Shown here piece after piece: positions 14,217 to 58,499 of a stretch of 64,000 nt of DNA (position 1 is the stretch's first letter; each line of letters opens with the position of its first letter). A model generated the notes under the pieces. It worked only from the letters and a program-made list of their open reading frames with translations. It made no database searches and had not been told where the DNA came from. The stretch covers positions 124,001 through 188,000 of the forward strand of contig CAJINV010000022.1 of assembly GCA_905178155.1 (NCBI GenBank), read 5' to 3'. The DNA comes from Amoebophrya sp. A120 (taxonomy: Eukaryota; Protista; Dinoflagellata). A program made the translations under genes and the position numbers.

Positions 14217-15604
14217 ACCGCCTCCGAGATGATCTGCTCCACGTCGGCTATAGTACGATCTGCGCAGATATCGAAAGAAAAAGTGTTGACGTTACGGTTT
14301 TAAGTTTTTTGGAAAAAAAAAATTTTGGGTGTATGCTGGAGGTATGTTTTTGGTTTGTAAGTCGACCCATTCCCGCTATTCGTTCTCGCGGGACTGCGAC
14401 GAAGCTCGCTTGGTTTGACCTAGCTAGTGCACAAAATATGACGGCGTAGGACTTCGGCGACCGGGGCCGCCCCCTGCCGTGCCTTCTCCTCGCCGCCGGC
14501 TCTTAGATCCGGGCCAGAACGCTCAAACCTCGAACCGTGGCTAAACCTCGGACGTGTGGACCTATGAGCTTGCATCTAGATGGCGTTTCCGCCAGTTCAG
14601 CTCTGTGCGGCTGTGCAAGTTTCCATCTCGGACCTTTTGGCGCCTTTTGTCAAATTTTCTCCATGACTGAAGAAAAGGTGGCACTTTCGAGGATGAGGGA
14701 AATGGGCAAACTTTGGGTACCAAAATGCCCAAAATTTGCAGGCACCCCAAAAACCGTCAACACCTCATCTAGACACTACGGTATGGTCGATCGGGTCTTC
14801 CAGAAGCCTGCTTTTTTGCATGAAATCGACCAAAAAACCGTCAACACCTCATCTAGCCAGCACGCTATGCTCGATTTGCCTGCTCAGAAGGTGCGCTCCC
14901 GTGCCCGCACCGGTTTGAGTGAAGGGAAATGGATCATAGCGTGCTGTCTAGATGAGGCGTTGACGGTTTTTGTGGGATCTGCATTTTTTGGCCTCGAAAT
15001 GGCGTCAAATCATTGATTTTTTCCTCGGATTTTTCCAATTCCCCAAAAAACCGTCAACATCATATCTGGACAGCATGCTAAGGTCCATTTTCCCTCAATA
15101 AAACAGGTCCATCTCCGGCGTCGATCGTTGCGACGCGTTGGTGGGCGGGTCTTGTCAGCAGTGCCGGGGCCCTGGCCCACCGGCTTACAGCCATCATGGC
15201 TCTTGAGCCCGGACAGGGATTGGGCAGCCATTTCAGGGCTTGAAGGGGCGCAATGTTGTGGCGGGGCCTCATAGTTTTCGCACCGTGTGCACTAGCTTCC
15301 TCTCCCAGAGTTTTACCACTTTAGAGCCCCGCAGGGGCAAAGAATGAGGCTGCGCGGCGGCGAGAAAAAAAAAAATTAAAATGATGGTGCTCAGTACCCA
15401 CAAAAATTTTTTTTTCCAAAAACCCGAAAACCGTAACGTCAACACTTTTTCTTATGATAGCAGAGGAGGTTGTTCATCTCCAAGTGCAACAAGTTGCACG
15501 AAAACCCTACCGCCTCCGAGATGATCTGCTCCACGTCGGCTATAGTACGATCTGCGCCACGGAGGTTGTTCATCTGCAAGTGCAACAAGTTGCACGAAAA
15601 CCTA
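14217..15604. repeat. 96-bp tandem repeat (about 2 units) interrupted by a TIR element
   Basis: ACCGCCTCCGAGATGATCTGCTCCACGTCGGCTATAGTACGATCTGCGC at 14217 and ~15509; GGAGGTTGTTCATCT..AAGTGCAACAAGTTGCACGAAAA at 15465 and 15561. Confidence 0.85.
14269..15459. mobile_element. 1.19-kb non-autonomous TIR element (family G), intergenic
   Basis: TSD GCAGA/GCAGA; ~65-bp imperfect TIR TATCGAAAGAAAAAGTGTTGACGTTACGGTTTT; four internal AAAACCGTCAACA..CAT-type repeats, one inverted. Confidence 0.9.
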
Positions 15605-23700: not shown

Positions 23701-26520
23701 CAGATGAATCATCCCACGACTTCATCATCTTCATCATCAACATCTGCACGTGGGCCAACAACATCTTTCCAATACGGCACCAGCACAACTCGTCCGCAGA
23801 ATCCCTTCATTCCCCAGCAGGACGGCGCACCAGGACGTCGGCCTCCGCAGCCTTCTCCTCCACCTCTGGGTGCGACGACGGGTGGACCACAGCTCCAACA
23901 GCGTCTATTTGACGCCCTGCTGCTTGCAACGGTGCTGATGCGTGCGAAATTGCGCGAAGCTGCGTTTTCAACAGCCGGCCCCGGCGAAGTTGCAGCTTCC
24001 CAGACCACCAGAATGGTGATTAATACGTTTCTGGATGTGGGCGGTGTGAGGAACGACAACGATCCACATTCGGCTCTTCAACAGCCAGAAAACTTTCTCG
24101 CGGCAGCGGACGCAGTGGTGGAGTCTTTTTTCGCAACCTATGGATTGCAAATATGTCTGGGTCTGGAAACTTGTGATGCTGAGGCATGGATGAGTTTGGT
24201 GCTTTCAAGTGCAGCCATGCGTGACAAGTTTAGTTGGCGCCGTCTGATGCGTAGCACGCATGACAAGTTCTTGCATCACAAAAGAGTCGCGCGCTTGGTG
24301 GCTATGCAATACAGATTTTTCAGGAATGCAGGACATGCAACACAAGTTCCACCTTTGTTCCAGAGCCAGACATATTTGCAGTTGATACAACCTACGTAAG
24401 ACTCATTTTCGACGCCGATTGGCGGCTGTTGGTGCAACAGTCTACTACTGCTCCCGAGCAAGAAGCGGGACAAGGCGAACTACCGAGCGCCACGCCTCCA
24501 GCTCCTGTTGCTGAAGCTGCTTCTTCTACCAGGAAGAGTTATCGGGACGTTTTGATGTCTGCTGTTGGTGCAGGTAAAGCAGAAGGCCGCGCCCCGACGA
24601 ACAAGGCCAATGCCAAGGCCGCGGCATCAAGTAGAAACGCTGCAGCACCAAAAAGTACTGCCAAGGCAAAAGGCAAAGCCAAGGCAAATCCGAAGCCCAA
24701 GCCCGCGGGCGGAGGGCGGCCAGCTGAGGAAGGATCGTTCGATGACCAGCAAGGACAATATCAAGAAGGGGCCGCGAATACGAATAGTACAACTGAGCCG
24801 AACTCCAACGTCTTCCCCGATGGGGTTTTCGTAGCTGCAGTGGCCGCGCAACAAGGCCTGCAGCGCGGGGTTGAACTTGGCAGCTCCTGGGCACAAGTAC
24901 AACTACCTATCTTCCATTTACTCTCCCTTGTCAACAAACTGCCGGAGCTTGTGCAAGCGTCGCCGTCCTCGTCCCAAGCAGCACAAAGCATGATTTCGAA
25001 CATGCTCGGCTTAGTATCCTGAGTAAAAACGTACCCACACCAGAGTTGTAATGCAGATTTGCAAAGACAGGAAGGCTTGTAATGCGCATCACCATGAGAG
25101 CCATTTCCAATCGTGTTTTGGAATTTGTGATGCTGTGAACAGGATGAGCAGATGAATCTGTGATGCGGCTGCACTTGCTAACCTGCACTACACTGCAGAG
25201 TGCAACTTGTCATGCGTGACTCACAAAACTCCTAGGTTTGTGTTGCAAAATCCCCATCCTGACTCTGGTGTGGGTACGTTTTTACTCAGGATACTTAGTA
25301 GCGCAGCTCGCAGGATACCGCGTTGAACAGATTCGATTTGGTAACAACAACCAACAAGAAGATGAAGACTCAAGTGCTGTCGAACAACTACAAGACGTGG
25401 GGTCCTCGTCGACGTCCTTGGACAGTGGCTTGTCCACTTTTCTGTCCGCAGCGGAGGTTATGAACTGCAAAAGTATCGTATTCGTATAAATGCATTACAA
25501 ATTTCCTCAGCATGAGAAATAAAATTTGTAATGCGGATTCGACTTAACAAAAAGATTTGTAATGCATGATTGCAATACGAATACGATACTTTTGCACAGG
25601 ATAGAGGTGCTCTCCGCTCGAGTCGACGTGCAGGCTCAGGCCCTGCTCGAGGCTCAGACAAGTCGAACTGGTGGTCACCAACGAAGTAGAAGTACAAGGA
25701 GAGCAAGAAGTCGCACACGCTCCAGCAAATCTTCATCCTCACGAGATCGCAGCACATCTTCATCACGAGATCGCAGCAGAGCTTCATCTAGTGGACGACC
25801 TGCGGATCCGAATGCTGTACCGCGGCATGGTCGTCGCCCCACTGTTGGTGGAGGTGGAGTCCCAGCACGCCCCTCGATTGGGCGTGGCGAACAGCGCCTG
25901 AAAGGAAGACGGTCCCGATCTCCTTCCCAGGAGGTCCTGGAGGCCACGACGGCGACGGCCCACGATTTTTATACCACGTCTCCGGTTGAGAGTGATCGTG
26001 AAGATGAAGCACACGACTCGTCCGCGTCCATCGCCGGTGCAGAGTCAGTGGATGGACCGTACGATTTTTACGATGTTGGTGATAAGCAGGGGCATCGCTC
26101 GCGATCACTAAGTCCGGCACCTGTTTCGGTAGGTGGTGCCTCGACCGCTGTCGGCAGCCAGGCGGTGTCATACGTCACCTCGACCGTAGGCAGTTGGCCC
26201 TACGTCGGAGGGAGCAGTAGTAATCCAGGAACAACGAGCGCCTCCTATCCTGAGTAAAAACGTACCCACGACACCAGAGTTGTAATGCAGATTTGCAAAG
26301 ACAGGAAGACTAGTAATGCGCATCCCCATGAGAGCCATTTCCAATCGTGTTTTGGAATTTGTGATGCTGTGAACAGGATGAGCAGATGAATCTGTGATGC
26401 GGCTGCACTTGCTAGCCTGCACTTGTCATGCGTGACTCACAAAGCTCCTAGGTTTGTGCTGCAAAATCCCCATCCTGACTCTGGTGTGGGTACGTTTTTA
26501 CTCCGGACACCTCCTTATGA
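20750..26520 (+). CDS. Large lineage-specific protein (C..GLR(F/Y)P family) with N-terminal TM; may be two genes split at ~22933-23300
   Basis: Introner removals chain 20750-22932 and 23305-26520 (ends ASL*). The link across 22933-23304 is unresolved, but both sides share a frame. Confidence 0.6.
22251..22400. mobile_element. Introner family A
   Basis: TSD CACGC/CACGC; TATCCTGTGCAAAAGTATCG; frame restored. Confidence 0.92.
22933..23319. other. Probable old intron or degenerate introner
   Basis: Starts TATCCCCTGC, tandem TTGTCATGCAAAATTC twice, ends CGGATA; no matching TSD. Confidence 0.4.
24139..24387. mobile_element. Introner family B
   Basis: TSD CAACC/CAACC; gives FATYVRLIF. Confidence 0.92.
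25015..25293. mobile_element. Introner family F (young)
   Basis: TSD CTTAG/CTTAG; perfect 32-bp TIR TATCCTGAGTAAAAACGTACCCACACCAGAGT. Confidence 0.95.
25459..25603. mobile_element. Introner family A (reverse orientation)
   Basis: TSD GAGGT/GAGGT; ends TTTTGCACAGGATA. Confidence 0.92.
26246..26509. mobile_element. Introner family F (near-identical to 25015; ACA end)
   Basis: TSD CCTCC/CCTCC; ends TTTTTACTCCGGACA; lies two codons before the stop. Confidence 0.92.
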
Positions 26521-26929
26521 ATGCGTCAACGATTTCGACTTCGACTCGGGAAGAGTTTTGCCTTTACACGGAACAGAGCGGCCACAGCTGCTGCATAATT
26601 GTAGTGCTGGATGCTGATGTAGAAGAACTACGAATAGTGCACGATGTTTGTACAAATTCAATACATAAACGTTGCACGAAGCTTCCTGCACAAGAAATAT
26701 ATCAGTCACGTCACATTTGCCATTTTCCTAGTTCAGGTGGACGCTTCAACTCTTTGTAAGTATGTACTATGGAGTTCTTGTGTCTCTTCTCTTGAGGTCC
26801 AGGAGGACAACTCGCGATTTGCAGTTTCATGCAAGGAAGATGAATATTTGTGCAACGACTCTATCTGAGCTGCTCCGTCCTGTTGTAAAAAAAACTCTTC
26901 GCGGGCACAACTTTTTGCGATCATACTCA

Positions 26930-27961
26930 ATGATGGGAAGTCCCGAACTTGGAAGGATCAGTTATCCAAAGAAAAAAACCCATCCACATCCAATTTGTCA
27001 TGCAAAAAACGTATAAAATCATGTGTTTGTCATGCAAAAAATGGATGTGGATGGGTTTTTTTCTGTGGATATCAGTTACTCTAATCCTCCAAGCGCGAAG
27101 GCCAGTCCCGAACTTATGGAAGCGTCAGGTTTGAAATCGTCAAAGTTGATATAATTTGTAATGCATAAAGTGCGACACAAAAAGCGACTCTATTGCAGAG
27201 GACCCACGGGAGGCAGATTATACATAGTCCTGGTAAGGGTCAAAAGTTGGATTGCTAACTAGCATGACAGAAGGCAGCTCTTTTGCCCTCAACCGCACGA
27301 CAGACTCGCTTCCAGGAACGGGAAAGTTTGTCATGCGCCGACTACAAACTGTAGGTCTAAACGGTATCCGTTTTATGCATGACAAACTATTTCAACTTTG
27401 ACGATTTCAAACCTGACACATCCATAGAACTCGGAAGGAACATCACAACGACCTCGGGAAGTAGACCTGAACCCTATGGAAGCGTCAGGATTGAAATCGT
27501 CAAAGTTGAAATAGTTTGTGATGCATAAAATGCAACCCACAAAGTGCCTGTCTTGCAGAGTAGGCAAGGGAGGCAGATTGTAAGCCTGTCGAGGGGTAGG
27601 ATCACTGCTGCTAAAGTAGCACGACAAAAGGCGTCTTCCTTACCTAAACAGCATGACAAACTGGATCTCGGCTCTACTCAAATTTGTCATGCGCCGCTTA
27701 GAAATTGGGCTTCCAACTGGTATCGATTTTATGCATTACAAGTTATTTCAACTTTGTCGATTTCAACTCTGACACATCCATAAAGCAGAGCAGATTCTGG
27801 ACATCTCCGAAGCAGAGTCAGAGGCGGAAGATGGTGATAAGCAGGGGCGCTTGCGATCCCTAAGTCCGGCAGCTGCCTCGACCGTTGCCGGGAGCATGGC
27901 GGTGTCCCACGTCACCGGCGCTTCCTCGTCTGCAGCCACCGCTACAGGCACCTTCTTATGA
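26930..27961 (+). CDS. Putative chimeric mini-gene (~90 aa) with three introners
   Basis: Spliced: MMGSPELGRISYSNPPSAKASPELGRNITTTSGSRPE-EQILDISEAESEAEDGDKQGRLRSLSP...GTFL*. Confidence 0.55.
26963..27071. mobile_element. Introner family C
   Basis: TSD TCAGT/TCAGT; empty site in the paralog at ~28798. Confidence 0.95.
27115..27426. mobile_element. Introner family D
   Basis: TSD GAACT/GAACT; empty site in the paralog at ~28836. Confidence 0.93.
27475..27782. mobile_element. Introner family D with mismatched TSD
   Basis: Intact TIRs; flanks AACCC/AAGCA; element+5 nt removal keeps frame. Confidence 0.85.
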
Positions 27962-28388
27962 ATGCGTCAACGACCTCGACTCGGGAAGAGTTTTGCCTTT
28001 ACACGGAACAGAGCGGCCACAGCTGTTGCCATTGTAGTGCTCGATGCTAATGTAGAAGAACTACGAATACACGATGTTTTTGTTTGTAGTTGTACAAATT
28101 CAATACACGACAAACGTTGCGCAAAGCTTCCTGCACAAGAAATAAATCAGCCACGTCACATTAGCCATTTTCCTAGTCCAGGTAGACGCCCCAACGTTTT
28201 GTATGTACTATGGAGTAGTTTTAGGTGTCTCTTCTCTTGAGGTCCAGGACGACAACTCGCGACTTGCAGTTTCAACATGCGAGGAATTATATTTGTGCAA
28301 CGACTCTAGTAACTCTATCTGAGCTGCTCCGACTCCGTCCTGTTGTAAAAAAAAAACTCTTCGCGGGCACTTTTTGCGATCATACTCA

Positions 28389-31300
28389 ATGACGGGAAGT
28401 CCCGATCTCGGAATATCCTGAGTAAAAACGTACCCACACCAGAGTCAGGATGAGGATTTTGCAACACAAACCTAGGAGTTTTGTGAGTCACGCATGACAA
28501 GTTGCACTACTACTGCACCCTAGATCTCCTGCGGCCGTAGCTGCTTGCGGCGACGGTGCAAAGGTTTTCGATGTGGCGCAGTCGGGTATGCATGACAAGT
28601 TGCACTATGCAGTGTAGTGCAGGTTAGCAAGTGCAGCCGCATCACAGATTCGTCTGCTCATCCTGTTCACAGCATCACAAATTCCAAAACACGATTGGAA
28701 TGGCTCTGATGGGGATGCGCATTACAAGTCTTCCTGTCTTTGCAAATCTGCATTACAACTCTGGCGTGGGTACGTTTTTACTCAGGATACGGAAGGATCA
28801 GTTACTCTAATCCTCAAAGCGCGGTGGGCAGTCCCGACCTCGGAAGGAACACAACGACCTCGGGAAGCAGACCTGATGAACCCATGCCTGCTCTTCGTCT
28901 GCATGCAGCAGCCTCGGGAAGCAGACCTGAACCCATGCTGCGACCTCGGGAAGCAGACCTGAACCCAGTGCCTATTCACGGGGCGCAGCAGCAGCAGCAG
29001 CAGCCTAATCTGCAGGCAGGGCAGACAGGTAATATCGTGCAGCAGCACCCGCCAGTTCTAGTAGCGCCGCCGGGAAGTAGTAGTGCTGGTTCCGGTTCAA
29101 TTCCAATTCTTGTGCCCATCCGAGACCCGGTGACGGGGCAAACGGTTTTGTCCCCTCCTTTGGGGTACGAACAAGGTACTCAAAGTCTGATTGTAGGGAT
29201 GCCGGTGAACCACGAGCAGCGGTTAGTCCTCCAACCGGCCCCGGGCACGGCAGGTGGTGTCGCGACCACGGGTCTCAATGTTGTAAACCAGCCGCAGCAG
29301 CAGCAGCAGCAGCAACACCTCCCCCCACACCAGGGCATAAGTAGCCCAATGTCTCCCGAGGAACGTGCCGCTCATCAGGAGTATGTTCAAAACCTGGTCG
29401 AGCGCGACAACGCCCGCCGGGCGGAAATCCAGCGTAATCGTGCACTAGAACGACAGGTAGGAGGACCGCCAGATGAACAAGCTGGGCGGGAAGTCGAAGT
29501 AGAGCCTGCAGGAGCAAATAGACGTGGTCTTGTACTTGCGCTCGCTGGCCGACGTGGCCGACGCGGTCGTCTTCAACCTGCGGAAGTCCAAGAGCGTCCG
29601 GATCCAGTGTCCCGGACGCCCTCGCACAGCCCTGAACGCTGGTTAGGACCAGGCGAGGGTCTTCGCGCCGAGGATTTTCATCCGCATCGGGGCAGAGGCC
29701 GCGTCGGGGCAGAGGCAACACAGCAGGGTGTGCAACAGGAGCTCCAGCAGGGGATGAGCATGGGCGTCATGATGCAGGTGGGTGGCCAAGAAGAAGAAAG
29801 AGGACCTGGGCCTCATCTAGGTCAACAGGCTCCCCCTGCGGTCGTCCCTCCGCCGCCTTACCCCGGGAACCATAATATAATGCACTACCCTTACCCCGGA
29901 CAACTACCCTTACCAATACCACCACCACCTGCTCCAGCAGCGCATGATCAGGAAGGCCAAGGTGCGGCTGCTGGTTTCGTTGGTTATAATCCTGCTGTCC
30001 CAGCAGCAGGGACCTGGGGAGGACCACCAGGGCCAGGAACGAGACAAGAGCAACCACAATGGCCTATAGTTTCCCCGCAAGGTTCCCCGCAAACTATGAC
30101 CACGGCAGGACCCGGAGTTCAAGTTCCTCTTCAACCAGCGGCTCCTGCACCAGGAATTATGCAGCACGGCATCAATTGGCAACAGGTTGCTTCACGACCA
30201 GATCCGTCGCTGATGGGTCCTACCTACGACTACCCGGGAGGTGTCGTGTCTTTTCCATCGGCGTTTGCCGGGTCATTCGCAGGGCCTTCGACGATGAGTT
30301 CTTCACCTGCTTCTATGGGGGCTGCCGAGTTTGGTGGTGCTGGTGGACACTTTGGTGGCGGTTTCGGTCCTGGTCTTGGCCAACCACAACAGCAGTTAAA
30401 TTATATTGCAGGAGAGAAGATGCCACCACAACTACAACCAGGAGTTGTACCTCCACATACTCCACCACAAGTATTTTTCCCTCCTTCTCCACAAATGATG
30501 AGCACCAGCGACTACTTCTTGATGCAGCAGTTGCAACAACGTGGTCAAGGCGGATGTAATATTACCACCACTTCTTCTGCCCCCGGGGGCGGATCTAGTT
30601 CCAGTTCGTCTCATCTCTCCCGACCCGTAGGCGGCGGCCGGGGATCTCCGGATGGTGGAGCGGCGCAAGCAACTTCGGATGGTGTTGGAGCGGCGCACGA
30701 GGGTGGTCCAGGTGATGTCCTGTGGCGGGGCGCCAAAGGTGATGCAAGGAAAAAAGGAAAAGGTGGAAAAGCTGCATCATCATCGAGGACGAGAGAAAAG
30801 CTGAACAAAGAAACAAAATCCGTCGTTGATCCGGACACAGCTGCGCCACAGCAAGAACAGGGTCATGCTCGTGTTGAACCAGGAACAGTATCGCGGCGAC
30901 CTGCGCCTAGATTTGCGATAGAAGCCGTGCAAAGTGCATTGCGGAAAGCTCAGCGCCGACGTCGTAGCCAGGGACTACATGGGTCGTGGCAGCCGGTCCG
31001 CGCGTTGCAATTCTTGCAAAATTGGATCGCTCACCGACCGGAGGCACGATTACTTCGAGAACGAGAGGAGATCGAAAGAGAACTTCAGGCCGGAAATGTA
31101 GTGCCTATCTTGGAACGGATGACCCCCGAGCAATTGGATGCGCAACGGCTCCTCATTTCTTTGCTTGACTCCAGGGCGTGGACGACGGATTTCATTGGCG
31201 CTGTCCTTGAGGATCCTCACTTTGTTCCTCGTCGGGAGCTAACCCCGGAGGAGGATGCAGCCAGTATTTCGCACTTTGAAAACAGTGTCCGCGACGCGTT

Positions 31301-45800: not shown

Positions 45801-48800
45801 TTGGAGCAGGACGTGATTGGACTATGTGGTCCACCCGGTGGTGACGCAGTGCCGACTGGAGAAGATCATGTTTCCGGGCGTCAGCATGAGGAGATGTTTC
45901 ATCGGGGGACACCAGATTTCGCCCAAACACCAGATCTGGCACGTAATGTAGGAATACAACTCACTTTTGAAGACACGACCACTGCTCTTGGCCAGCAGCA
46001 AGACCAACAGCAGCACTTCAACATCCCGCGGAGTACTAGAGGCGACAAGGAACTACAAGTTGATCATCATCGTGTTCGGCCGCAAGAACGAGCTAAACCA
46101 ACCTCGATAAAGAAGTGCCCGCTGCCGTCGTCCGGTACAAGCTCCCGTTCTAATTCCCCCGGCGGTGCACCGACGGGACACGATTGGACGCCCTCTACTC
46201 AAGCACCAGGGCATATGGAGCTGTCAGGATTGAAATTGACAAAGTTGAACAAAAATTTGTGATGCATATATAAAGTCGAAACCAGTTGTAAGCCAAAGCC
46301 CAATATCCAAGCGGTGCATGATGACAAAATTCGGCACCGTCTAAATCCAGTTTGTCATGCTGTTGAGGGACAGAAGGCGTCTTTTGTCGTGCTGCTTTAG
46401 CAGCTCTATCACAGTCCCCAAACAGGCTGGCAGTCGGCCTCACTTGTCATCCCCGCAAGAGAGGCGCTTCATGCCTTGCAGTTTCTGCATGAGAAATTAT
46501 TTCGACTTTGTCGCTTTCAGTCCTGACGCTTCCATAGGGCAGACTCCCGGGCCGCGAACTGGCGCGCCCAGCCCGCAGCCAAGTCCGCGGGCGGGGAGAT
46601 CGTTTTCACCTGGTCCTGCTGCCCAGCACCGGAGAGTATCTTCCGAAGATGAGGCCGCGGGTAGAAGTCGGGCTAGCAGTAGAGATGATCATGGCCGCGG
46701 GTCAGATGTTGATCATGATGGTAGTTCATCTGGTGATGATTCTGATCCCGGCGGGGACCACGGCGGCCCAAGATCGGCGGCTGCGCGGAGAGCAGCTGAT
46801 TGGGCTCGAGTGCGTAGTTATGAATTGCAAAAGTATCGCATTCGTATAAATGCATTACAAATTTCCTCAGCATGAGAAATGAAATTTGTATATGCGGATT
46901 TGCTTTCAGAAAAAAATTTGTAATGCATTTATCGCAATAGCAATACGAGTACGATACTTTTGCACAGGATAGTAGTATGGACGTCGACCCTATGGACGTT
47001 GACCCGATGATGACAGCACGAAGAAGGATAAGAACAAGTAGAACTCCAGAGGAGCGGACTAGTGCGACTCCTGGTACTTCTGCCACCACAGGTGTGGCGA
47101 TTCTTGGAACTTCGTCGTCTTCCAGCGTAGTTCCTGTTCAACGGCATCAATCAGAACGGGAAGTAGTAGTTCATCCTCTTGGCACTGTCGAAAGGAGAAA
47201 GTTGGCCTCTCCTCGTCCTAGGATTCCCGCCGTGGCGTCGGGAGCTGAAGCGCATAGAGGTGGTCCTGAAGATGTGCTACAACACATAGAATCTCCGTCT
47301 GCCGCGCACTCGACTCAAGCCTCGCCGACGTCGCAATGCTACGGCGGTACGCCGGATCCCACACCGTATCCGAATTCGAAATTCAAATGTATCGGTTAGC
47401 CGCCAGTTGTACTTGTACCCTTCTGAGGCTGATGTTGATGATGTTGGACTTAGTAAATGCACCGGGAATTTTCTGACAAAAAAATATTTTGTGCTGCAGC
47501 TAGAAGATGAGTTGTGTGAAGCAGGTCGCAGATTTTGCAATCGTATCTATATCCATGGTCTGTCCTCTACTGCATGACCATAAATGAGAACAACAATGTC
47601 GAAGTTTAAAAATATCCTGGAACGGCTCAGATTCAGAAGGCGAAACGGCGGTGATAGATATGTTGTTTTTCGTCCTCTTCCATACACTGCAGACTGATTG
47701 GACGTTTCATGTAGATGAGGGGTCGGAGGAGGAGGTACAAGCTGATGTAGAGGCAGCACATATGAACGTGCAAAATGCAAAAGGGGTCAACCTAAACAGA
47801 GAAGTTTTTTTGCTGTTTGGGCAAAAAAACTTTTCATTTTCAGCCGTATTTGCTCGCGCCAGGTGCCCCTTCACCGCGCAATATTGAATGCTGCGAACGT
47901 ATTAAGGTGCCCAAAAACGAATCTGGCTGCCGCGCTCTATCTAGGTTGTCGCAGGCTTTAGCTTTGCGCGGTGCTGCAGTTGAAGCGCTCCTAGAAGGTG
48001 TCTCAACAGGTGGCGCGCGAACCTATATAACGGCGCAACTGCTTGGGCGGTTGAGGTGACACACCTCCGCCGAGGCGCGCCAACTGTGTTTCTCAAGGAG
48101 CTGGCAGCTGGAGGCGCGCCAGCGTTTGCGTTTGCTAACACTCGAAAATCCTCTGCGCAGAGACCGCGCCGCCCAGTCTGCCGCAAAACAACTCCAGAAA
48201 GCGCCCGCGCGAAATTGCTCCTTGAGAGTGTCCAGGATCATCTCCGGACGCAATACAGGCCGCATCCGCATGTGGGAGGGCGCTTAGCCTGGACAGGGGC
48301 TCACGCCGATCACGGAGCTTGCGCGACACATTGGAGCCGACATTTCTCGTCTCCTTTCCTTCTTCGCCGAATGCCGCTCGATGAGAAGAAACTTCTGACT
48401 TTGGGGATTTTTTTGCCGGATTTTGCCAAAACTTCGCCAAAAACCCGGACTTTGCCGAAGTTTTGGCAAAATCCGGCAAAAAAATCGCCAAAGTGAGAAG
48501 ATTCTTCTCATTGAGCGGCATTCGGCGAACGGGGAAGGGAGAGGTGAGACCTCTGCTACATTGTGCCGGGCAAGCTCCGGGATGTCCGAACCCCGGGCCA
48601 GGATTAACCCTTTTCCGCATGTGGATGCACTCTGGCTCGCGTCCGAGAATAGCTCTGGACATTTCCCCGGCAACCCGCGGAGCAACTCCGCAAGGGAGCT
48701 CGCTGGAGTTGCTTTGCGGTAGATTGGGTTGGCCGGTCTCTGCGAGAGGGCGCTTCGAAAATTAGATCAGGAGGCTGATGCAACTGCAGCGGCCATCACG

Positions 48801-51800
48801 CTTGACTTGCTTGAGAGGCACAGCTGGCGCGCCACGAGTGAGATGCGTCATCCCAACCGCCCAGCGAGTTGCGTCTTTAAGTTGCCGCACCACACGCAGA
48901 TGCGCGCTGCGGGATCGCGCCAGCTGTGGCACTGCGCAAGGCCTGCGACCACCTCTAACACGACAATCAGTCTTGTTTTTGCGCAACCTAACACGCGCAA
49001 CTCGATCCACTATCGCGCGGAGAAGGGGCAGCTGGTGCCGGCAAATACGCCCGAAAATGAAAAGTTTTTTTGCCCAAACAACGAAAAAACTTCTCTGTTT
49101 AGGTTGACCCCTTTTGCATTTTGCACGTTCATAGCAGCACATGATGACAACTACAGAGCGGAAACAAGACCTGCTCCTGTAACGGGAGCACTACAGCCCC
49201 CTGATTATAGAGACGCTCACGCAAGCAGCAGCAGCGGTGCAGTGTGTGAAAAAGATCCATCCCGCGTTTCGACCACTGCGCCGCACCAAGAAGCTGCTGT
49301 CCAACAACGGAGCAGAGCCAGCGTTGTAGCTGCAGAGCAACCTCATTTGGTGACGCAGGTTGTAGCGAGCCGACCACAAACTCTTGACCCGCCACCGCCT
49401 CCGGCGGCACCGGCACCGCACCTCCAGGGAGAGCCCGGGGCTGTTGAACGTGTTGTTGCGCCCGCCCGGACAGTCGAACAGCGACAGCAGGACGCACGCG
49501 ACAGGCTGGAAACATTGGCGCAGGCGACGATTCCTGACTTTTTCCGTCTGTTAGAAGCCGCCGCCGCCGACGGCCTGATAACCCACGAGCAAAAGCAGTC
49601 ACGCGTGAAAGATTTAGAAGGAAGGCTAAAGCACGTTCGCACATGGCGGTCTCACCACGAAGACCCGGAGAAGCTAATGGTCCAAATTGCCAGGTTGAGG
49701 AGGCCGCCATCCTACATCCACGACATCCTGGACACCGAAGAAGATATTGGGCGAGGCGCGCTACTGCAAGTAAAATATTGGACGGGCTACATTGCATGGA
49801 AGCGCGGTCGCCCCCGCGGGCCCGACGTAGAGGACAGTGCGATCATCAGTCTGGGGCATGACATAGTGCTGCAGAACCAAATTTTGAACGTTCTGCGAGA
49901 CGAAGTGCCAGCAGTTGTGCCTCTGACGCACTCGGAGCGAGAATTTCGTCTTTTCTGGGACGAGCGACAGCATCATCTCGACCAGGGTCGATTTACCCCA
50001 GCGACAACTGACGACCAGCTCCGTCGGCAGCTAAGGCAGCTAATAGGTGGCTCTGAACTAGATGTTCAGAACATCCTCGCGGAGCACCTCAGGCGGCAAA
50101 GGGGCCTACAAGACAAACTGGTTCTCATTCTACTAGAGCGGCCAACCGCGCTACGTGTACTGGATGAAAGAGCAACAGAACAACCGATGTACATGAACGC
50201 CCTGCACGCCGTTCTGGAGCGTGACCTCGCAGCTCAAGCCGCAGCCGCGACACAGGAATCTACACAGGAGGAATCACAGGCCGCAGAAGAACAACCTTTG
50301 GTAACTACGCAGGTTGTGGCGGACCGACCGCAACAAACACCTGAGGACCCGCCACCCCCGTTGGGTGCACCAGCAGCGCCGCCCCAGGAACAACAATCGG
50401 GGGCAAGTGTTGTTTCCTCGGCGCCAGGCGGGCCGATGACGCCACAGTTCGGTGCAGCTGGGACATCAAGTGCAAGACAAGTAGGAGAACTCAATGCAGA
50501 ACCTCCTGAAGAGGAGCAACCTCCGCCTCCTTTTGAGGCCCTAGAAAACCGAGCGGCTCCTGGATTAGGGGAAGATGAGGTTGGGGCGTCGAGGTCCACC
50601 TCCACCACCCCCTACGACTTAGAGAGAGAGGAACGACGACAGCAGGAGGCACGCTCGAGGCTGCAGGAATTGATGCAGACGACCATACCTGGCTGTATCC
50701 GTCTGGCAGCAGCCGCCGCCACCGACGGCTTGATAGGTGACGAGCAAAAGCAGAACAGTGCGAAATATTTCGAAGACAGTCTCGCGATCGTTCGCAGATT
50801 TCATGAAGAGTTCGCAGACCACCTCCACCCGGAAGCGGACCCCCGAAGCAAGACCATCCGGGAGTTACTGGACCGGGAAGAACAGACGGTGCGAGACGGG
50901 GTGGTAGAGTTTATAAGAGTATGGACAGATCACATAGTGGAGTGGCGACGCCGCGTACGCGAGGCAAAAATGCACGCCTCTGTTGTACAGCCCGCTGCAG
51001 GAGGTTCCTCTTCTGAGACAGGAGCAAGAACTGCAATTGTGGAACTTCTACCTGTGGACGAGGACAGCACGAGTCTAGGGCACGACGTCATGCTGCAGAA
51101 CCAACTTTTGGAGATTCTGCGATACCAAGTGCCACCATCTCGGTATCGCAACATGCGGTCAGAGCAAGAATTCCGTCGGCTCTGGGACGAGCGAGAGCAG
51201 CTTTGCGACCAGGGTCGAGCCACCCGCGCGATAGATGAGACCAATCTGCGTAGGCAGCTGCGAGCTCCAGTAGATGAACACAACACTGCAGAACACCTCA
51301 GGCGGCAAAGGGACCTACAAGACCAAATTTCTTTCCTTCTGCTGCACCGGCCACATGCGCTGGTCGTACTGGCGACAAGAGGAACAGAAATACCGACGTA
51401 CATGAACACCGTGGACGCCATTCTGGACCGACGTTGGCTCGCGGCCCAACGCGCAGGCACGACACAGGGATCCCAGGCCGCTGCTGCATCAGCGGCCGCC
51501 CCGTCGGCTGGCGGGATGCTGCTCTGCAGGAGAATCGTCCTCTTCTGCATCTTCAGTGCGAGCTCTGATGAAGACGAGGACGGCAAAGCAAAGCTGAAGA
51601 CGCAGTTGTCTGGCGCTCGTGCAATTGACATTGAAGTAGAAAAAAAAATAAAGATGGTAGAAAGCCTGCCCGTAGGTGAGGAAACAGCAACGAACTTGAT
51701 ACAGCAGATTAATCTCCGGGGGAGACAAATGCGGCATATTGATCTGGACCTCAGAAAGGATAAATATCAAAGACCCGGAGAAACTGTTGACACGTTTTTC

Positions 51801-54800
51801 TTTGGACTACTGGAAATCGGACGACTTGACGCCGAATATCAAAAGCTGCGGGACCTGGCTTCGAGCGAAAAATACAAGGTTTACATTTCCGACGACAACC
51901 TCGACGCCGACCCGCGGACGGTCACTGCTGAAGAAAATGGCATTGGCATTCACCCTGCTAACCTCGCTATGCCAGAAAAAAACCGTGTGAGTGTAAGTCT
52001 GTAGTGCGAAGTATGCAGGGGGCTGGGCGGACAGTTACACTTGTCATTCTGGCCAGCCATACACATACCAGCGCCCTCGCTTCATTCGTGTTCTCCTTCT
52101 CGCGTACTCACCGTGCATGAGAGGAATTCTCTGTCATGCAGAGCAGATAATAATTTGTCATGCTCATGTTGTTGATGTCTATGGCACGACCCCGAGGCAC
52201 CTATAAATGATACTACGATTTCTAGCACAGTGGTTTATTTTTTCTTGTATACTCGCGCAGGCCAGGTGTCTACTGATGTCGATGTGGATTGGAAAGGTTC
52301 TACCAACCGAGCAGGCGGGCGCAGGGTCAAGAACAAGAACTGGCGATTCATCTTCAAGCGCAGCAGGACCAACTGACGCATCAGCGACGGAAGATGATAT
52401 TAGAACCATCGGCAGCTGCTCAAGCGATGACGACGGACCGGATGACGACAGCACTGACGTCAGCACACCGGAATTGTTGAAAAAACAGATTATTCAACTG
52501 GGGAAAGAAATGCGGCTCGTTGATATGAAGATCGGCGACCTTGCGGCAGATGTGAACGAGAAACAGATGAGAAAGGTAGAAGAAAAAATTGAAGAGAGAA
52601 AAGATGGGACGAGATGGAGTCCGAACTATATGTGGAAGCTCGTGAAGGCACAAAGAGAGTTCTCAGTACAGCTATTGGAACTTGCAAAGCGCGACCGCAA
52701 GTACCAAAAGCTGCGGGACCTGGCTGCAAGCGGAACATACAACATTCCTGACGACGACCTCGACGATGACCCGCGGAAGTCTGATGCTTCGATATTTTCG
52801 CGGATTCATTTTCTCGCGAATGCGAGGGCCGCCTACGGGGAAGTGACCGGAATTGCCTCACGACCAACCGAGCAGGCGAGCGCAGAGTCAAGAACTGGCG
52901 CTTCCTCAACTGCAGCACCAGGACGGCCTGCCGCATCTTCAGCGACGAATGCAGCTGCTCCTGGAGCAGGGGAAGATGTTGAACTACGTGTAACGTCCAG
53001 CACGTCACCAGGCCCTACAGTCGAACAGAAACAACGACGGCAGAAGGCACGCGACAGGCTGGAAACATTGTCGCAGGCGACCATGCCGGACTTTATTCGT
53101 CTGGCAGAAGCCGCCGCTGCCGACGGCCTAATAACCACCGAGTATCAAATGCAAGTATATCTGGGTCGTCTGGATGAAACTTATGATGCAAACCAGGAAA
53201 AAATAACGGACGCGCTGTAAAAATATTACGCGGCCATGCATGACATAGGTTTTGAGCAGCTACGTGTTGCGTATTTCGCATGGCAGAATGCGCAGATTTT
53301 GCATGAGACAAGGACGATCTGTCAGTTTGCAGCTACGAATGACAGAGTTCCGAGTCATGTCAGAGTCAGACGAGCATGACAAAAATAAATCTTGCAATGT
53401 TCCAGACCCAGACATATTTGCAATTGATACTGAGCAAAAGCGCACGTTTGTGGAGTATTTGGAACAACAACTCGCGAACTTTCGCAGAGCGCATCAAGTG
53501 TGGGAATTCTCGGAAGCAACACTGTCACGAGCCGATTTCGAGGACATCCTGGACCAGGAAGAAAAGGCTGTGCGGCGGACGGTGCTACAGGGGATAAAAC
53601 AATGGACGGAGCTCATAATGGTGCAGCGAATCAAGATCCACCAAGCACACGAAGCAGCACTTCCGCGCTCTTCTCTCGCACAGCCCGCACCAGCAGGGGC
53701 TTCCTCTTCTGATACAGGAGCAACTGCAGTTGCGGCACCGGCGGCGGAGGACAGTGCGAGTCTGGGGCATGACGTAGTGCTGCAGAATCAAATTTTGAAC
53801 GTTCTGCGAGAACAAGTGCCACCAGCTCTGCCTCTAACGCAGTCGGAGCAAGAATTCCGTCGTCTCTGGGACGAGCGAGAGCGTCTTTGCGACCAGGGCC
53901 GAGCAAGCCGTGCGACAACTGATAACGACATGCGGAGCTGGCAACTAACAGGCTTACTAGAAGATGATCACAGCACGACCGCGCCGGATGAACAACACCT
54001 CAGGCGACAGAGAGACCTGCAAGACCAGATGGTGTTGCGTCTACTATGGCGGCCAAATGCCCTGGATGTACTGGACGAAAGATCAACAACAGAGCTACCG
54101 ATGTGCCAGCACACCCTGTTTGCCATTCGGGTCCGTTCCCCCGCGGCCGTGCAGCAGGTGCAGGCACAGCAGCCTGCAAGCGCAGGATCAAGAGCGGGCG
54201 CTTCCTCGAGTGCAGCAGGACCACCTGCCGCATCAGCGACGGAGGCTAGTAGGAAGACTCGCCCAGCACAGGAGGAAGAGGAAGACGTAAATCTACTTCA
54301 CCAAGGAAGTGGTGGTGAATCTAGTAGTACCTTCTCTTCACCGCCACGCCAGGGTAGACAACTACCACCGGGGGATCCTGTTTCTTCGGCGCCAGATCAT
54401 GCTGGGCCGATGACGCCACAGTTCGGTCGTGCAGCGGGGGAAAGAAGAACAAGCGCAAGTTCATCTTCACAGCCTCGAGATGAACTACCGCCTCATGATG
54501 CTTCGTCGGGGGCACGGGCAGCAGGCGGTGGTACAATTTCTGCCGGAGGAATTGAGGCCGGTGCCGGAGATGAAAACACTGCAGCAGGAGCTCCTGCTGC
54601 TCTGGGTCTGGTTCCGTCGTCCTCAACTACTGCTCCTGGTGCTTCGGGTCCAGAACCAGAAGAACTACCTCAGCCTGGTCGACTACGATCACTGGTTCTA
54701 GGACCACCGAAAGTGGACCAGCATGATGTCGACCACCAGGGCCAGCAAATAAAGCAGCACCGCGGAGGCTTGTATTCGTTGGCTGGGCCGATGACGCCAC

Positions 54801-57800
54801 AGTTCGGGCGCGCAGCGGCGGGAAGAATAAGCGCAACTTCATCTTCACAGCCTGCTCGAGATGAACTACCGCCTGATGCTTTATCGGGGGTTGCAGGCGG
54901 TGGATCTTCTACTTCGAGAGCAGATGGCGCAGGAGCGCACCAGAACATCAACCCTAGTGCCACTGCTACTGCTGCTCCGCCGCAGTCGCTACTGCAACAA
55001 GGCGGGCTTCGGGCTGCGCTCACTGCGTCGCCGGTCATCGAAGGCACGCCAGCGCCGCCGTACCGAGAAGAGCAACTTAGAGGAGGAGCAATAGCCCCCT
55101 CTTTGCAGGAAGAAGGTCTCGGTCTGCTCTCGCACCCACCTTATAGTTCCGCAACAGCAATACGCGAAGGAGTTGTTATAATAGATGAAGGCCCAGGTGG
55201 TACTAGTAGCTCGTTGTTCATCCCGTCTGGGCATGGTTCTGCAGGAGCTCTGGCAGCCAGTGCCGCGACGTTTTACCCAGAGCCAACGTTTTACCCAGAG
55301 CCACCATATCCCACTTCTAGGGACGGTCTTGATCCTCAACCGCTTTATTCCTCCGACCGCCCGCAGCTGTATCATGGCGCCCGGGTAGACCTAGATGACC
55401 CTACCCACCCCATCAACCAACCATTAGATCCAGAGCCCGCGCGGGGACGAGGCGTAGTTCAAATCGCCCGTTCCCGCGGTAGCAGCGTGGACTCGATGCA
55501 GGAATTACATGGCGGCAACTATAGCGGGATTAAGACCGCGGATTACACGTCGTCCACAGTGTCGCCGGCGACTGCGGGCGGAATTGTTTCGCCGTCTACG
55601 GTATCGCCACTATCAAGCGCAAATATGATGTTAGTCATCCAGAGCCAGTTTGGTTTTGAAAGATGAAGGGGTTGTTGAGTATTATAAGTTCTGTGTGATC
55701 TTGCTGTTTCGCCTTTGGCTTTGCATCATTCGAAGCGAGGAACACCGACCGCACTTTGATTTTTACCGACTGGGACTGGTGCTCTGGTATTACTAACATC
55801 CTACTTGCCGAGTGCATACCCATCCACTGTTGTGATAGGAGACGTCGACGCTAGGGGAAGGAGTCCTTCTCCCGAGGACGCACGACCGCTGGAGGTTCTT
55901 CTCGACCCGCACGACACAGGACAAGAACCACAGCACCAACAACCCCCACCCGCACGACCTGCTCTTTTAGCTGGTCAGCAGCACCAGCGCCATCAATTCT
56001 CCCCACATGCTGCAGAATTTCGTCCGGGGATGGTTTCTCATGGGGCGGTGGCAGCCCCGCAGGAGCAAACACCCCAAGGAGAACTACATGTAGGACAACT
56101 AGTGCAGCCACCTGCAGCAGGTGGGAGTACTCCAGCGATGGCTCTGCAGCCAATACTAGGCAACATGTCCAATGCAACAGCCTCCGACTACCATCAATAT
56201 GCAGCCCCGAACTACGTCTATCCGAGCCCGTATCCAGGTTCTTGGGGCTCGCCGTTGAGTGCAGCTGGAACGAGCTTTTATCCCCAGCAGGAGCTGCAGG
56301 AGCAGCAGCTGCAGCAAGAAGCACTACAATACTTTGCAGCTCCCGAGCTGCAACAACTACAACACGAGACAGGCACTGCTTATTCCCCAATGATGTTCTC
56401 ACCTATGGTCCCGCCGCCGCAGGGAGGTTACAATCAAGGTCATCAAGCTGCTCAAGCCGCAGGACATCTTCAACTAGGTCAGCAACAAATGCAGCAGCAA
56501 ATGCAGCAGCAGCAAATGGTGCAGCAGCCGCCCATCATGGGTTTCATGCAGCCGATGATGAGTCAGAGTCCGATGTCTACTTTCAATGTTGTGCAGCCTA
56601 TGATGCAGCAGCAGCAGCACCTTTACCAGCCACAGATGCAGATGCCTCAACCGCAGCAGGTTGCTGCACCGACGCAGATGCAGCAGCACCAGCAGGTTGT
56701 TTTTCCGGAAGCTGGTGCTACGTCAACACCGATGCACTCTCAGCAGCAAGAAGGCATTCGCCAAGGCCAACAAACGGCTGCGACTGATGAGTCACAGCTT
56801 GCTTCTGCTATGAGCGTGCACAACACCCCCTCATTTCAGGGACATGAACATGTCATCTAGCAACACAACTACTAACAACCTGCGAGGAGATGTGCTGTAG
56901 CTTTCGAATGACAGATGATCCACACCCAGGCTTTATTTGTACAGTTTGGGCTTCCAGAACTTGTCATGCAATGCCCAGATAGGATTTAGATTTTGCATTT
57001 TGGATGTGGAGTCGTGAGCAGGAACAGGATGAGAGGGAGTTGTGCACTTTCATACCGGGTGGTGCTGCGCCCCCGCCAAACCGCGAGCGCGCCAACCCCA
57101 ACGTTTGGAAGGGAGTCCCCGCGCAAATATCGTTACTGGCCGCGGGATATCTTGTGCAAAAGTATCGTAGTCATATAAATGCAAGACTTGCATTACAAAT
57201 CCTTTTCGTAGGGTAAATTCGCATTACAAATTTCATTTCTCATGCTGAGGGAATTTGTCATGCATTTATACGAGTGCGATACTTTTGCAGTTCATACGGG
57301 AGCCGCCGCCAGCGGAGGCAAGGAAGCACAAGGCCGGTTTCCAAGGACGCCTAAATTTGGAAAACGAGGTGACTCGTCGAAGAAGACCACCAGCGGTCCA
57401 GTAGATTCGGACGACGAGCAGAGCCCCGCCGCGAGTAGCTCAACGTTTGCCCGCGTTCCAGAGGACCCATCTTCTCCTTCTTCTTCGCCAAACAGGCCGA
57501 TTGCAGAGCAGCGCAGATCGTCTCCCCAACGCCAAATAGAGCAGGTTGAGGAGTTTGAGTTTCCGACCCGCGGCCGAGGTGGAGGTGGTCTGTTCGGGTT
57601 CCTGCATGATAGAGGTCGCGTAGAAGCGACCCAGGATCCTACCCAAGCGACTGGCTCTGGGACACTTCATGGCGTTGGAGGAGGTGCTAGTAGCTCTTCG
57701 TCGGCCCTTCCTATAGCCGGTGTACAGGCGGAGCAAGAGCAACAGCGAGAAGAACAAGAACGCCCGCACGAGAACCAGGAGACGCAACGCCTGCTGGAAC

Positions 57801-58499
57801 GAGTGCTGCAGAGCCAGGACGATTACAGAGAAAGCAATTTCCCTGGTTTCCTAGAAGCCGGTCGCGAAAGAAAACGAGAAATATTGAGACAATTCGAGTC
57901 ACATCTATGAAAGCCTCAGGTTGGAAATCCTCAAAGTGAAAATAATTTGTAATGCAAAAAAACGACTCCAGTTGGAGCACCGTTTCTAGTCGGCGCATGA
58001 CAAATTTTCCGGGCACTCAAAACGTGTCTGTCATGCTAGTTAGGCAAAGGGGTGCCCTTCTCTCATGCTAATCAGCAGCCTAATTCTGAACCCGTAGAAG
58101 CACAATAGTCGGCCTCCATTGCGTTCTCTGCAATACAGTCTTTTTGGTGCCGCATTTCATGCGTCACAAATTATTTCCACGTTGAGGATTTCCATTCTGA
58201 GGGTGTCATAACATCTCCGAGGCACTGGCATGCTCCGGAAGGTTTTACAAGCCCAGAGGAATAAGGAGGCGCATCAGCAGCGAGAGCAGCGAGAACGAGA
58301 AGTTAACTTGAGTGCAGCACGAACGAGAACTGACGAGCGAGTGCAACGAGAAATCGTGGAAAGACAAAGAGCAAAGCAGCGGAGGAGTCTGAGTGTGGGT
58401 GCGGAGCCTAGGTCTACTGCGCTGGGGCGAGGAGAGCACGAGGAAGAAGAACCCGCGGCCGAGGTCGTCGAATCTGATGCGGAAACGTATTGGAAATGA
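36813..58499 (+). CDS. Giant lineage-specific protein (~5,240 aa if all 20 introners are spliced), with internal helical repeats
   Basis: Twenty successive element removals each land in the frame of the next ORF (21,687 - 5,973 = 15,714 nt). Weakest joins are at 38399, 41050, 55624 and 56809. Confidence 0.65.
37574..37719. mobile_element. Introner family A (reverse orientation)
   Basis: TSD CTACA/CTACA. Confidence 0.92.
37775..37938. mobile_element. Introner family G (ACA end)
   Basis: TSD CGTCC/CGTCC; TATCAAACAAAAAAGTGTTAAC...GTTAACACTTTTTCCTGTGACA. Confidence 0.9.
38399..38616. mobile_element. Degenerate introner
   Basis: TAT...GATA; flanks GTGGG/CTGAT; GCATGACAG inside; element+5 keeps frame. 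Confidence 0.5.
39643..39792. mobile_element. Introner family A
   Basis: TSD TGCAC/TGCAC. Confidence 0.92.
39867..40126. mobile_element. Introner family B
   Basis: TSD GAACA/GAACA. Confidence 0.92.
40672..40933. mobile_element. Introner family B
   Basis: TSD CGAAC/CGAAC. Confidence 0.92.
41050..41309. mobile_element. Introner family B between duplicated exons
   Basis: Family B TIRs, ends GCATC; no 5-bp TSD; flanked by a ~110-bp duplication. Confidence 0.8.
42330..42582. mobile_element. Introner family B (in-frame, stop-free)
   Basis: TSD ATGCT/ATGCT; perfect TIR TATCAAATGCAAAAGTGTCTGGGTCTGGAA. Confidence 0.93.
42626..42861. mobile_element. Introner family H (opposite orientation to 782)
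   Basis: TSD GTTTG/GTTTG; TIR shared with 782-1026. Confidence 0.92.
44222..44529. mobile_element. Introner, singleton
   Basis: TATCATGGAGAAAA...TTTTCTCGATGATA; flanks TCGCT/ACGCC; frame restored. Confidence 0.75.
46214..46536. mobile_element. Introner family D
   Basis: TSD GGGCA/GGGCA. Confidence 0.92.
46819..46971. mobile_element. Introner family A (reverse orientation)
   Basis: TSD GTAGT/GTAGT. Confidence 0.92.
47367..47684. mobile_element. Degenerate introner, singleton
   Basis: TAT...CATA; TSD CACCG/CACTG; frame restored; TIR weak. Confidence 0.65.
47761..49133. mobile_element. 1.37-kb foldback (palindromic) element within coding sequence, 8-bp TSD
   Basis: TSD GCAGCACA twice; ~120-bp TIR starting TATGAACGTGCAAAATGCAAAAGGGGTCAACCTAAACAGAGAAG; symmetry axis at ~48447; removal gives VEAAHDDNY. 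Confidence 0.93.
51968..52251. mobile_element. Introner, singleton
   Basis: TSD CTCGC/CTCGC; TATGCCAGAAAAAAACC...GGTTTATTTTTTCTTGTATA. Confidence 0.85.
53143..53429. mobile_element. Introner family B
   Basis: TSD CCGAG/CTGAG; removal gives GLITTEQK, matching the uninterrupted repeat GLITHEQK. Confidence 0.92.
55624..55803. mobile_element. TIR intron without apparent TSD
   Basis: TATGATGTTAGTCATCCAGAGC pairs with GCTCTGGTATTACTAACATCCTA; 180-nt removal keeps frame. Confidence 0.65.
56809..57054. mobile_element. Introner family E
   Basis: TIR TATGAGCGTGCACAACACCCCCTCAT; flanks TCTGC/CCGGG diverged; element+5 keeps frame. Confidence 0.8.
57148..57296. mobile_element. Introner family A
   Basis: TSD CGGGA/CGGGA. 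Confidence 0.92.
57906..58210. mobile_element. Introner family D-like
   Basis: TSD ACATC/ACATC; TIR TATGAAAGCCTCAGGTTGGAAATCCTCAA. Confidence 0.9.

Follow-up and report, generated by a model that had tools for sequence, protein, structure and literature searches.

In a 64,000-nucleotide (nt) stretch of the Amoebophrya sp. A120 genome (the window, whose positions serve as numbering throughout), a 1373-nt foldback element with TAT...ATA ends interrupts a protein-coding frame, and contigs of probable RNA origin lack it together with 1 nt ahead of its TAT and 4 nt behind its ATA. This likely reflects splicing at fixed distances from the element ends that ignores both the flanking 8-bp direct repeat and the GT-AG rule. 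The ruler itself is very probable and, given the ruler, we lean towards a relaxed U2-type spliceosome as the cutter. The value of the element is that it exposes a splicing rule concealed in the standard introners of this genome.

The joint 47759|49138 is present in contigs of two runs of one sample, X4 (71 and 89 nt on its two sides) and X5 (51 and 113 nt), whose RNA nature was guessed, none of the listed runs that contain the stretch being recorded as RNA. The element therefore behaves as an intron, as the original prediction held from the sequence alone, and the natural test that it foresaw between repeat-guided removal and a fixed 5-nt offset came out in favor of the offset, because 1378 nt are skipped rather than the 1381 nt expected if the direct repeat guided removal. 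The 5′ cut falls 1 nt before the element starts and the 3′ cut 4 nt after it stops (−1/+4), a register that alone among 144 combinations yields this joint. No letters at the joint fit both sides (both=0), and this lack of microhomology argues against a reverse-transcriptase artefact.

Removal leaves the host gene readable. A second skip lies in cis on the X4 contig (47366–47688, joint 47365|47689), and with both joins made the stretch from 46976 has 207 stop-free codons, where the other frames are interrupted by 15 and 10 stops. The predicted excision of 1381 nt, which would join VEAAH-DDNY, was right about the frame and wrong about the join: the product reads VEAA-P-HDDNY, one codon (proline) more than the empty site. 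Since 1381 nt and 1378 nt both keep the frame (the latter also with a flush 5′ cut, as VEAAQH..), decay or surveillance of out-of-frame RNA cannot explain the choice between them. Pfam scans of the host open reading frame and of the element gave nothing above the cut-off (one weak match, E 0.02, lay below it), and protein searches returned no annotated product across the joint, the sole match being the window’s own piece 50436–51002; a search with the protein of another gene gave none. The host gene, which has neither a Pfam match nor an outside relative, contains three diverged internal repeats, each several hundred codons long (49470–50260, 50624–51472 and 53017–54147).

The long element is surrounded in the window by about 30 TAT...ATA elements with 5-bp repeats, which match the published A120 introners. 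Our catalogue of the window has 38 rows, of which 32 scoring at least 26 were taken; these comprise 25 with an exact 5-bp repeat, five with one mismatch in five, the 1373-nt element with its 8 bp, and one element without a repeat that is probably a mispairing. The six dropped rows include four with an exact 5-bp repeat, one that pairs parts of two elements, with a 7-nt repeat, and one with none. TAT(G/C) stands at 73 of 74 element ends, a partly circular count because the catalogue pattern required it. An exact 5-bp repeat hides the register, as in the joint 57900|58211, where the element and one repeat are lost, while a decayed repeat leaves it readable. Four such comparators (Table 1) fit −1/+4, in agreement with the claim that the long element shares the excision system of its 5-bp neighbors. 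Among the pieces listed, this register fits all five informative joins, and the four comparators alone intersect only there (p ~0.05 if registers varied evenly). For the element at 56809 we infer that exactly the element and 5 nt are lost despite only two of five shared repeat letters. The intron ends under −1/+4 are AT-AG (47761), GT-CT (47367), GT-GA (53143), CT-CA (55611) and CT-GG (56809); this variety among the comparators indicates that the cut is set neither by an AG nor by the direct repeat, and the AG at the 3′ end of the long intron is likely incidental.

In the mechanism that we propose, the sum of 1 and 4 nt would equal the usual 5-bp target duplication, so that ordinary insertions would be removed from the mRNA without a trace, whereas an 8-bp insertion would leave 3 nt (the proline codon) and would survive because 8 and 5 agree modulo 3. 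A relaxed U2-type spliceosome could read N-UAU(G/C) as 5′ splice site positions +1 to +5, with U, A, U and G at +2 to +5 and no need for the G, and could count the 3′ site 4 nt from the terminal AUA. As TAT is found at both ends, the orientation of the element would not matter for its removal. The intron ends would be brought together by pairing between the terminal repeats, and the long hairpin would be dispensable. Movement of the 1373-nt element itself would likely have been in trans, by a transposase identical with or closely related to that of the 5-bp TAT families.

The main rival, which ranks first among the alternatives to a spliceosome although we judge it unlikely, keeps the −1/+4 geometry and attributes the cuts to a non-spliceosomal, structure-guided nuclease with a ligase (tRNA-splicing-like or euglenid-type) with the base of the terminal stem as its reference point. 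It would account for the lack of conserved end dinucleotides, and the first and last 30 nt are predicted to pair in all 31 folded elements (9–30 expected pairs). U1 small nuclear RNA (snRNA) was not detected in A120, most spliceosome proteins being present (Farhat et al. 2021, PMC7789003), and the machinery in Euglena is given as unknown (PMC12501133). However, the terminal TAT/ATA pairs have a predicted probability of at most 0.03 in three of seven RNA-supported short elements, and only 20 of 37 elements are complementary at position 4, so the predicted stem base varies while the register stays, and distances seem to be measured from the terminal motif rather more than from the base of the stem. 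The sub-terminal box points the same way: the long element has TATGAACG-TGCAAAA where the 5-bp families of the window have TATGAAC-TGCAAAA, one added base that places AAAA 8 nt instead of 7 nt after TAT, and the cut still tracks TAT/ATA.

It is improbable that no general ruler exists, with a near-canonical pair chosen locally (here AT-AG, owing to a CAG that the 8-bp repeat offers 4 nt beyond the element) and various registers used by other elements. The removed piece does end in CAG, Table S4 of PMC7789003 has AT-AG as one of the more frequent A120 end pairs, and introners of Polarella recruit sites from the repeat (10.1101/2020.10.14.339549). Yet the four other joins fit −1/+4 with the 3′ ends CT, GA, CA and GG, and an AG occupies that place in only 4 of the 25 perfect-repeat elements, while the element and 5 nt are lost wherever RNA covers one. 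The 47367 element moreover skips a GT...CAG option 4 nt further on, although its use would break the frame and might expose the RNA to degradation.

Strong hairpins with flanking direct repeats are known to cause template switching, and with runs of low depth whose RNA nature is a guess, the joint could in principle be an artefact or a DNA event, namely a reverse-transcriptase jump over the hairpin, wrongly assembled contigs, or an allele in that sample from which the element was excised or was always absent. We regard this as very improbable: no letters are shared across the joint, a repeat-guided jump would have removed 1381 nt, the identical joint occurs in two runs, two joins stand in cis on one contig, the DNA contigs of run X1 are unbroken across both cut sites, and the contigs of X3 and X6 lack the joint 47759|49138. 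That the direct repeat guides removal and restores the pre-insertion sequence is barely credible, since even though 1381 nt would be in frame and perfect 5-bp cases lose the element and one repeat, both contigs crossing the site lack 1378 nt and elements with decayed repeats still lose the element and 5 nt.

Fixed-distance splicing at −1/+4 has its own difficulties. The direction of the evidence is clear and its amount thin, with five joins from one sample and low-depth contigs. The published text calls the A120 splice sites variable (Farhat et al. 2021, PMC7789003), and family 65 of Gozashti and colleagues, with an 8–9-bp repeat and GG/CC ends, uses other splice positions (PMC12130899), so that the rule may cover TAT elements only. 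Contigs at a depth of about 4, from a single sample guessed to be RNA, lose rare forms, and a minor 1381-nt product is possible. The removed piece ends in CAG, so the joint 47759|49138 taken alone is also compatible with choice of an AG. The comparators at 53143 and 56809 were read from piece ends and gap lengths rather than from listed joints, and the informative joins are those readable among the pieces listed, where one listing comprised 24 pieces and a further 143 joints lay outside it, so that more informative joins may exist.

Published splice-site counts lend the rule no independent support either. The BLAT aligner favors splice motifs when sliding an alignment, and we used this sliding rule in a simulation. 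Applied to random 5-bp repeats, it matched the 16-class dinucleotide counts of 9716 family-2 introns (Dataset S2, PMC12130899) with r 0.95 at the 5′ and 0.94 at the 3′ end, and BLAT was one of the tools behind the A120 gene models (PMC7789003). Because sliding reproduces the published counts, they speak neither for the rule nor against it, and ambiguous alignment can account for much of the published splice-site variety. For the same reason Table S4 (nine A120 end pairs, all with an N-T 5′ end; PMC7789003) was rejected as support for the −1 register.

The 1373-nt element is real. The predicted whole-length palindrome, with its TAT...ATA ends and 8-bp repeat, proved exact in its coordinates; the element begins with TATGAAC, ends with GTTCATA and is flanked by exact copies of GCAGCACA, and exact 8-nt repeats at spacings of 1300–1459 nt occur at 584 of 10,016,720 position pairs in the window. 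Aligning the left half with the reversed right half matched 504 of 709 columns (71%), for a score of 763, where none of 50 shuffles exceeded 183. Complementarity is 100% in the first 50 nt, 82% to nt 130, 60–65% with indels in the middle, and 75% and 90% near the apex. The terminal inverted repeats (TIRs), predicted at about 120 bp, measure 129 nt at 91% complementarity with the outermost 50 nt perfect, and the continued imperfect self-complementarity that had been claimed (48360–48440 against 48452–48535) lies within the central arms, which are 85% complementary. Alignment of the central arms (48309–48441 and 48451–48583) puts the axis at 48446, in line with the predicted axis at the element midpoint (48447). 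That arm identity is high at the ends and apex and low between them suggests repair or conversion near the loop, or some function of the apex.

Arm mismatches are rescued by G-U pairs without bias to the transcribed strand (40 versus 45 of 159 mismatches). Folding predicts a single long imperfect RNA hairpin of −857.6 kcal/mol, a value that has no shuffle control at such length. The claimed RNA hairpin of about 680 bp is thus predicted to form, but since elements of 110–320 nt are removed in the same manner it is not required for removal. None of 15 Pfam frame scans of the element exceeded the cut-off, and no transposase, hAT type included, was found within it; 14 Rfam matches were all under the gathering score and represent generic hairpins, and a tandem-repeat search gave one 12-nt doublet. 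The right arm (48723–49133) contains 137 stop-free codons in the frame of the downstream exon, probably by chance.

In run X1, which may be the window’s own source and is to that extent limited as independent support, the arms are held by separate contigs (47927–48435 at a depth of 97.7, and 48457–49030 at a depth of 88.2 with 5 differing letters). Flank contigs (depths 30.9 and 25.8; 21–31 for flank contigs overall) enter the element ends by 29 and 30 nt without differences, and are continuous and difference-free across 47759/47760 and 49137/49138; this reach is below the 31-nt bar for bridging, and no listed contig covers the whole element. The apex is crossed by a 66-nt DNA-type contig of X6 (contig 24, 48413–48479). 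The suspicion that the palindrome might be a fold-back assembly artefact is countered by arms that differ by 29% with indels and by their separate DNA contigs. The interior depth is about 3–4 times that of the flanks, and in X4 the right end (49133) is also joined to a second, different flank, which suggests some 3–4 near-identical genome copies and makes the whole diverged palindrome the likely mobile unit. An exact-pattern scan of metagenome contigs with the element terminus gave 0 matches; the 19 matches to the element centre were rejected as chance, all alignments being at most 28 nt.

Table 1. Coordinates of the foldback element, its intron and host exons, and the comparator elements in the window.
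Feature	Position	Strand	Evidence and remarks
Intron as removed	47760..49137	+	1378 nt, ends AT..AG, unambiguous joint; X4 depth 3.8, X5 depth 3.9
Upstream exon of host gene, 71 nt	47689..47759	+	X4 contig 10; frame open after both joins
Downstream exon start, as covered by joined contigs	49138..49250	+	Open frame onward to ~51966
Foldback TIR element, non-coding, TAT...ATA ends, 1373 nt	47761..49133	.	Alignment of own halves, contig depth, no Pfam above cut-off
Left 8-bp repeat copy (GCAGCACA)	47753..47760	+	7 nt kept in exon, nt 47760 removed with intron
Right 8-bp repeat copy	49134..49141	+	First 4 nt removed with intron, last 4 nt exon
Left TIR	47761..47889	+	129 nt, first 50 nt perfect
Right TIR	49005..49133	-	129 nt; X4 contig joins 49133 end to another flank
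Central hairpin, conserved	48309..48583	.	133-nt arms, 85% complementary, 9-nt loop 48442-48450
Comparator, old TAT..ATA element, flanks CACCG/CACTG	47367..47684	+	X4 listed joint 47365|47689; fits -1/+4 or 0/+5
Comparator, flanks CCGAG/CTGAG	53143..53429	+	X4 and X5 pieces start at 53432; fits +2 to +5 assuming element and 5 nt lost
Comparator, flanks GCCAC/CCCAT	55611..55818	+	X4 adjacent pieces 55606|55820; fits +1 to +4
Comparator, flanks TCTGC/CCGGG (2/5 alike)	56809..57054	+	X4 and X5 piece end 56806, 85-nt gap; putative join fits -1/+4 or -2/+3

Introners of A120 are described as inverted repeats that start with TAT, followed by seven freer bases and three A, with direct repeats of 3–5 nt (Farhat et al. 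2021, PMC7789003). The same source gives inverted repeats of 8–20 nt for analyzed introns of 40–1000 nt, and its Fig. S21 plots direct repeats of 3–8 nt. With these introners (PMC7789003, PMC12130899) the 1373-nt element shares TAT inverted repeats with an A run about 7 nt on (8 nt here, one more than in the 5-bp families), a direct repeat, the lack of a transposase, non-canonical removal and repetition, but it is longer, palindromic throughout and flanked by 8 bp, and is for this last reason a variant rather than a plain member. The palindromic A120 families in Dataset S2 of PMC12130899 measure 106–165 nt, and none of its 58 A120 rows shows a family near 1.37 kb with these features. A120 introners, short palindromic families and codon-adding introners have already been published (PMC12130899, PMC9860276). 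What these papers leave open is the border, called variable or unknown in PMC7789003 because the 5-bp repeat hides it, and which is fixed here at −1/+4; no statement of such a register was found in the literature searched, with figures S19–S25 of Farhat and colleagues outside it.

It has been posed as an open question how Amoebophrya removes tens of thousands of non-canonical introns when no U1 snRNA has been detected. The 1373-nt element breaks the ambiguity of the borders and gives an exact, testable code; it also speaks against these introns being artefacts of reverse transcription, and it points to alignment as the probable main source of the splice-site variety in the literature. With somewhat better than even confidence, we extend the rule to the roughly 30,000 TAT-type introners of A120, which would all be spliced by one code, N-TAT(G/C)...(G/C)ATA-NNNN, blind to GT, AG and the direct repeat, with a ruler matched to the 5-bp stagger of the dominant transposase. 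If so, any TAT insertion in either orientation, up to at least 1.4 kb of near-double-stranded RNA, would become a clean intron, and coding DNA would tolerate only duplications of 5, 8 or 11 bp. Together with Euglena (3 + 5 = 8), this would be a second, independent splicing code molded to the cut of a transposase. Gene models could be corrected with the rule, which also predicts the transposon insertions that an exon can tolerate.

By analogy, the mode of action most resembles that of the nonconventional introns of Euglena, to which the element does not belong. Knock-in experiments proved spacers of 3 and 5 nt in those introns (Nomura et al. 2025, PMC12501133), which share with the A120 elements non-GT-AG ends, paired termini, spacers counted from a short terminal motif with the longer one at the 3′ side, and a transposon-like origin. 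However, the Euglena code is N3-CDG ... CHG-N5-6|R (3 + 5 nt) and the one found here N-TAT(G/C) ... (G/C)ATA-N4 (1 + 4 nt); the Euglena signature is absent from our intron, which starts with A-TATG and ends with CATA-GCAG, and so is the purine rule, the next exons starting with C, G, G, T and G. As Euglena belongs to a different supergroup, the likeness would be convergent.

Polarella glacialis and Aureococcus likewise have TIR elements that serve as introns, with 4- and 8-nt duplications in one genome and some elements adding codons (10.1101/2020.10.14.339549, PMC9860276), but these need G-starting 5′ and AG 3′ sites drawn from the element or repeat, whereas the end letters here are not fixed. 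In Fritillaria borealis, introns derived from miniature inverted-repeat transposable elements, with TIRs, target-site duplications and non-canonical ends, are handled by a modified U2 spliceosome (PMC11282704, 10.1101/2025.08.15.670264); their ends are mostly AG-AC or AG-AT and lie inside the terminal repeats, whereas both cuts here lie outside the element, in the duplicated target. Ordinary U2-type GT (GC) ... AG ends are absent, given AT..AG in the long intron and the endings CT, GA, CA and GG in its neighbors. Fixed distances as such have precedents between branch point and 3′ site in Yarrowia, Giardia and Trichomonas (PMC2483917).

The original prediction also invoked a second transposase class for the 8-bp repeat, and the data do not demonstrate one: only one 8-bp site could be observed, its ends resemble those of the 5-bp families, and the termini of P and Mutator elements do not fit. 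We consider a separate transposase possible but doubtful, and the splicing result is independent of it. For the hAT superfamily, defined by 8-bp duplications at all copies, a single site was visible with both flanks, and the element itself has no hAT transposase. Merlin elements have GG..CC termini. Their 8-bp duplication (PMC10045372) fits and the TA/TA ends found here do not; the P superfamily was rejected because its 8-bp duplication comes with CA/TG termini (criterion of Dataset S2, PMC12130899), and Mutator/foldback elements (Mutator-like elements, MULEs) because, although long TIRs and 8 bp fit, the GG/CC termini seen in A120 family 65 are absent. IS3EU/GingerRoot elements share TA..TA termini with the 1373-nt element but have 6-bp duplications (PMC10045372), against 8 bp here and 5 bp in its neighbors, and the element encodes no transposase. 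The A120 ‘Ginger’ family 38 has a 5-bp target-site duplication and TA/TA termini (Dataset S2, PMC12130899), and a transposon of its kind is the likely mobilizer of the TAT elements in the window.

Against a separate transposase stand the near-equal ends of the long element and the 5-bp families, the fact that a 5-bp duplication with a 3-nt GCA slip gives the same letters as the 8-bp repeat, and the several duplication lengths reported within one family, IS481EU (PMC10045372). In its favor are the exact 8-mer and distinct shape of the element, the coexistence of 4- and 8-nt duplication classes in Polarella (10.1101/2020.10.14.339549), and the occurrence in A120 of an 8–9-bp family, family 65 (Dataset S2, PMC12130899).

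Several other features of the window were recorded. A second long TAT...ATA element (14269–15459, 1191 nt) is flanked by an exact 5-bp repeat and is palindromic only in part (336 of 624 columns), and its length equals that of A120 family 103 (Dataset S2, PMC12130899). Nested and duplicated introners occupy 26246–28790; one of them (27475–27782) has no flanking repeat, yet the frame is open after removal of the element and 5 nt. The raw RNA run X7 matches only the repeat family of the element at 57906–58210, with no match on the host gene. In this run 247 reads start near 58097 and run into a different flank, as expected if transcripts at another locus or in another strain start inside a copy, and adapter-like letters at their start presumably represent a template-switch adapter. 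Finally, the 3′ part of an SNF2-type helicase gene (P0001, 1–2869) combines four ordinary GT-AG introns, two of which start with GTAT, with one introner, so that both kinds of intron occur in one gene.

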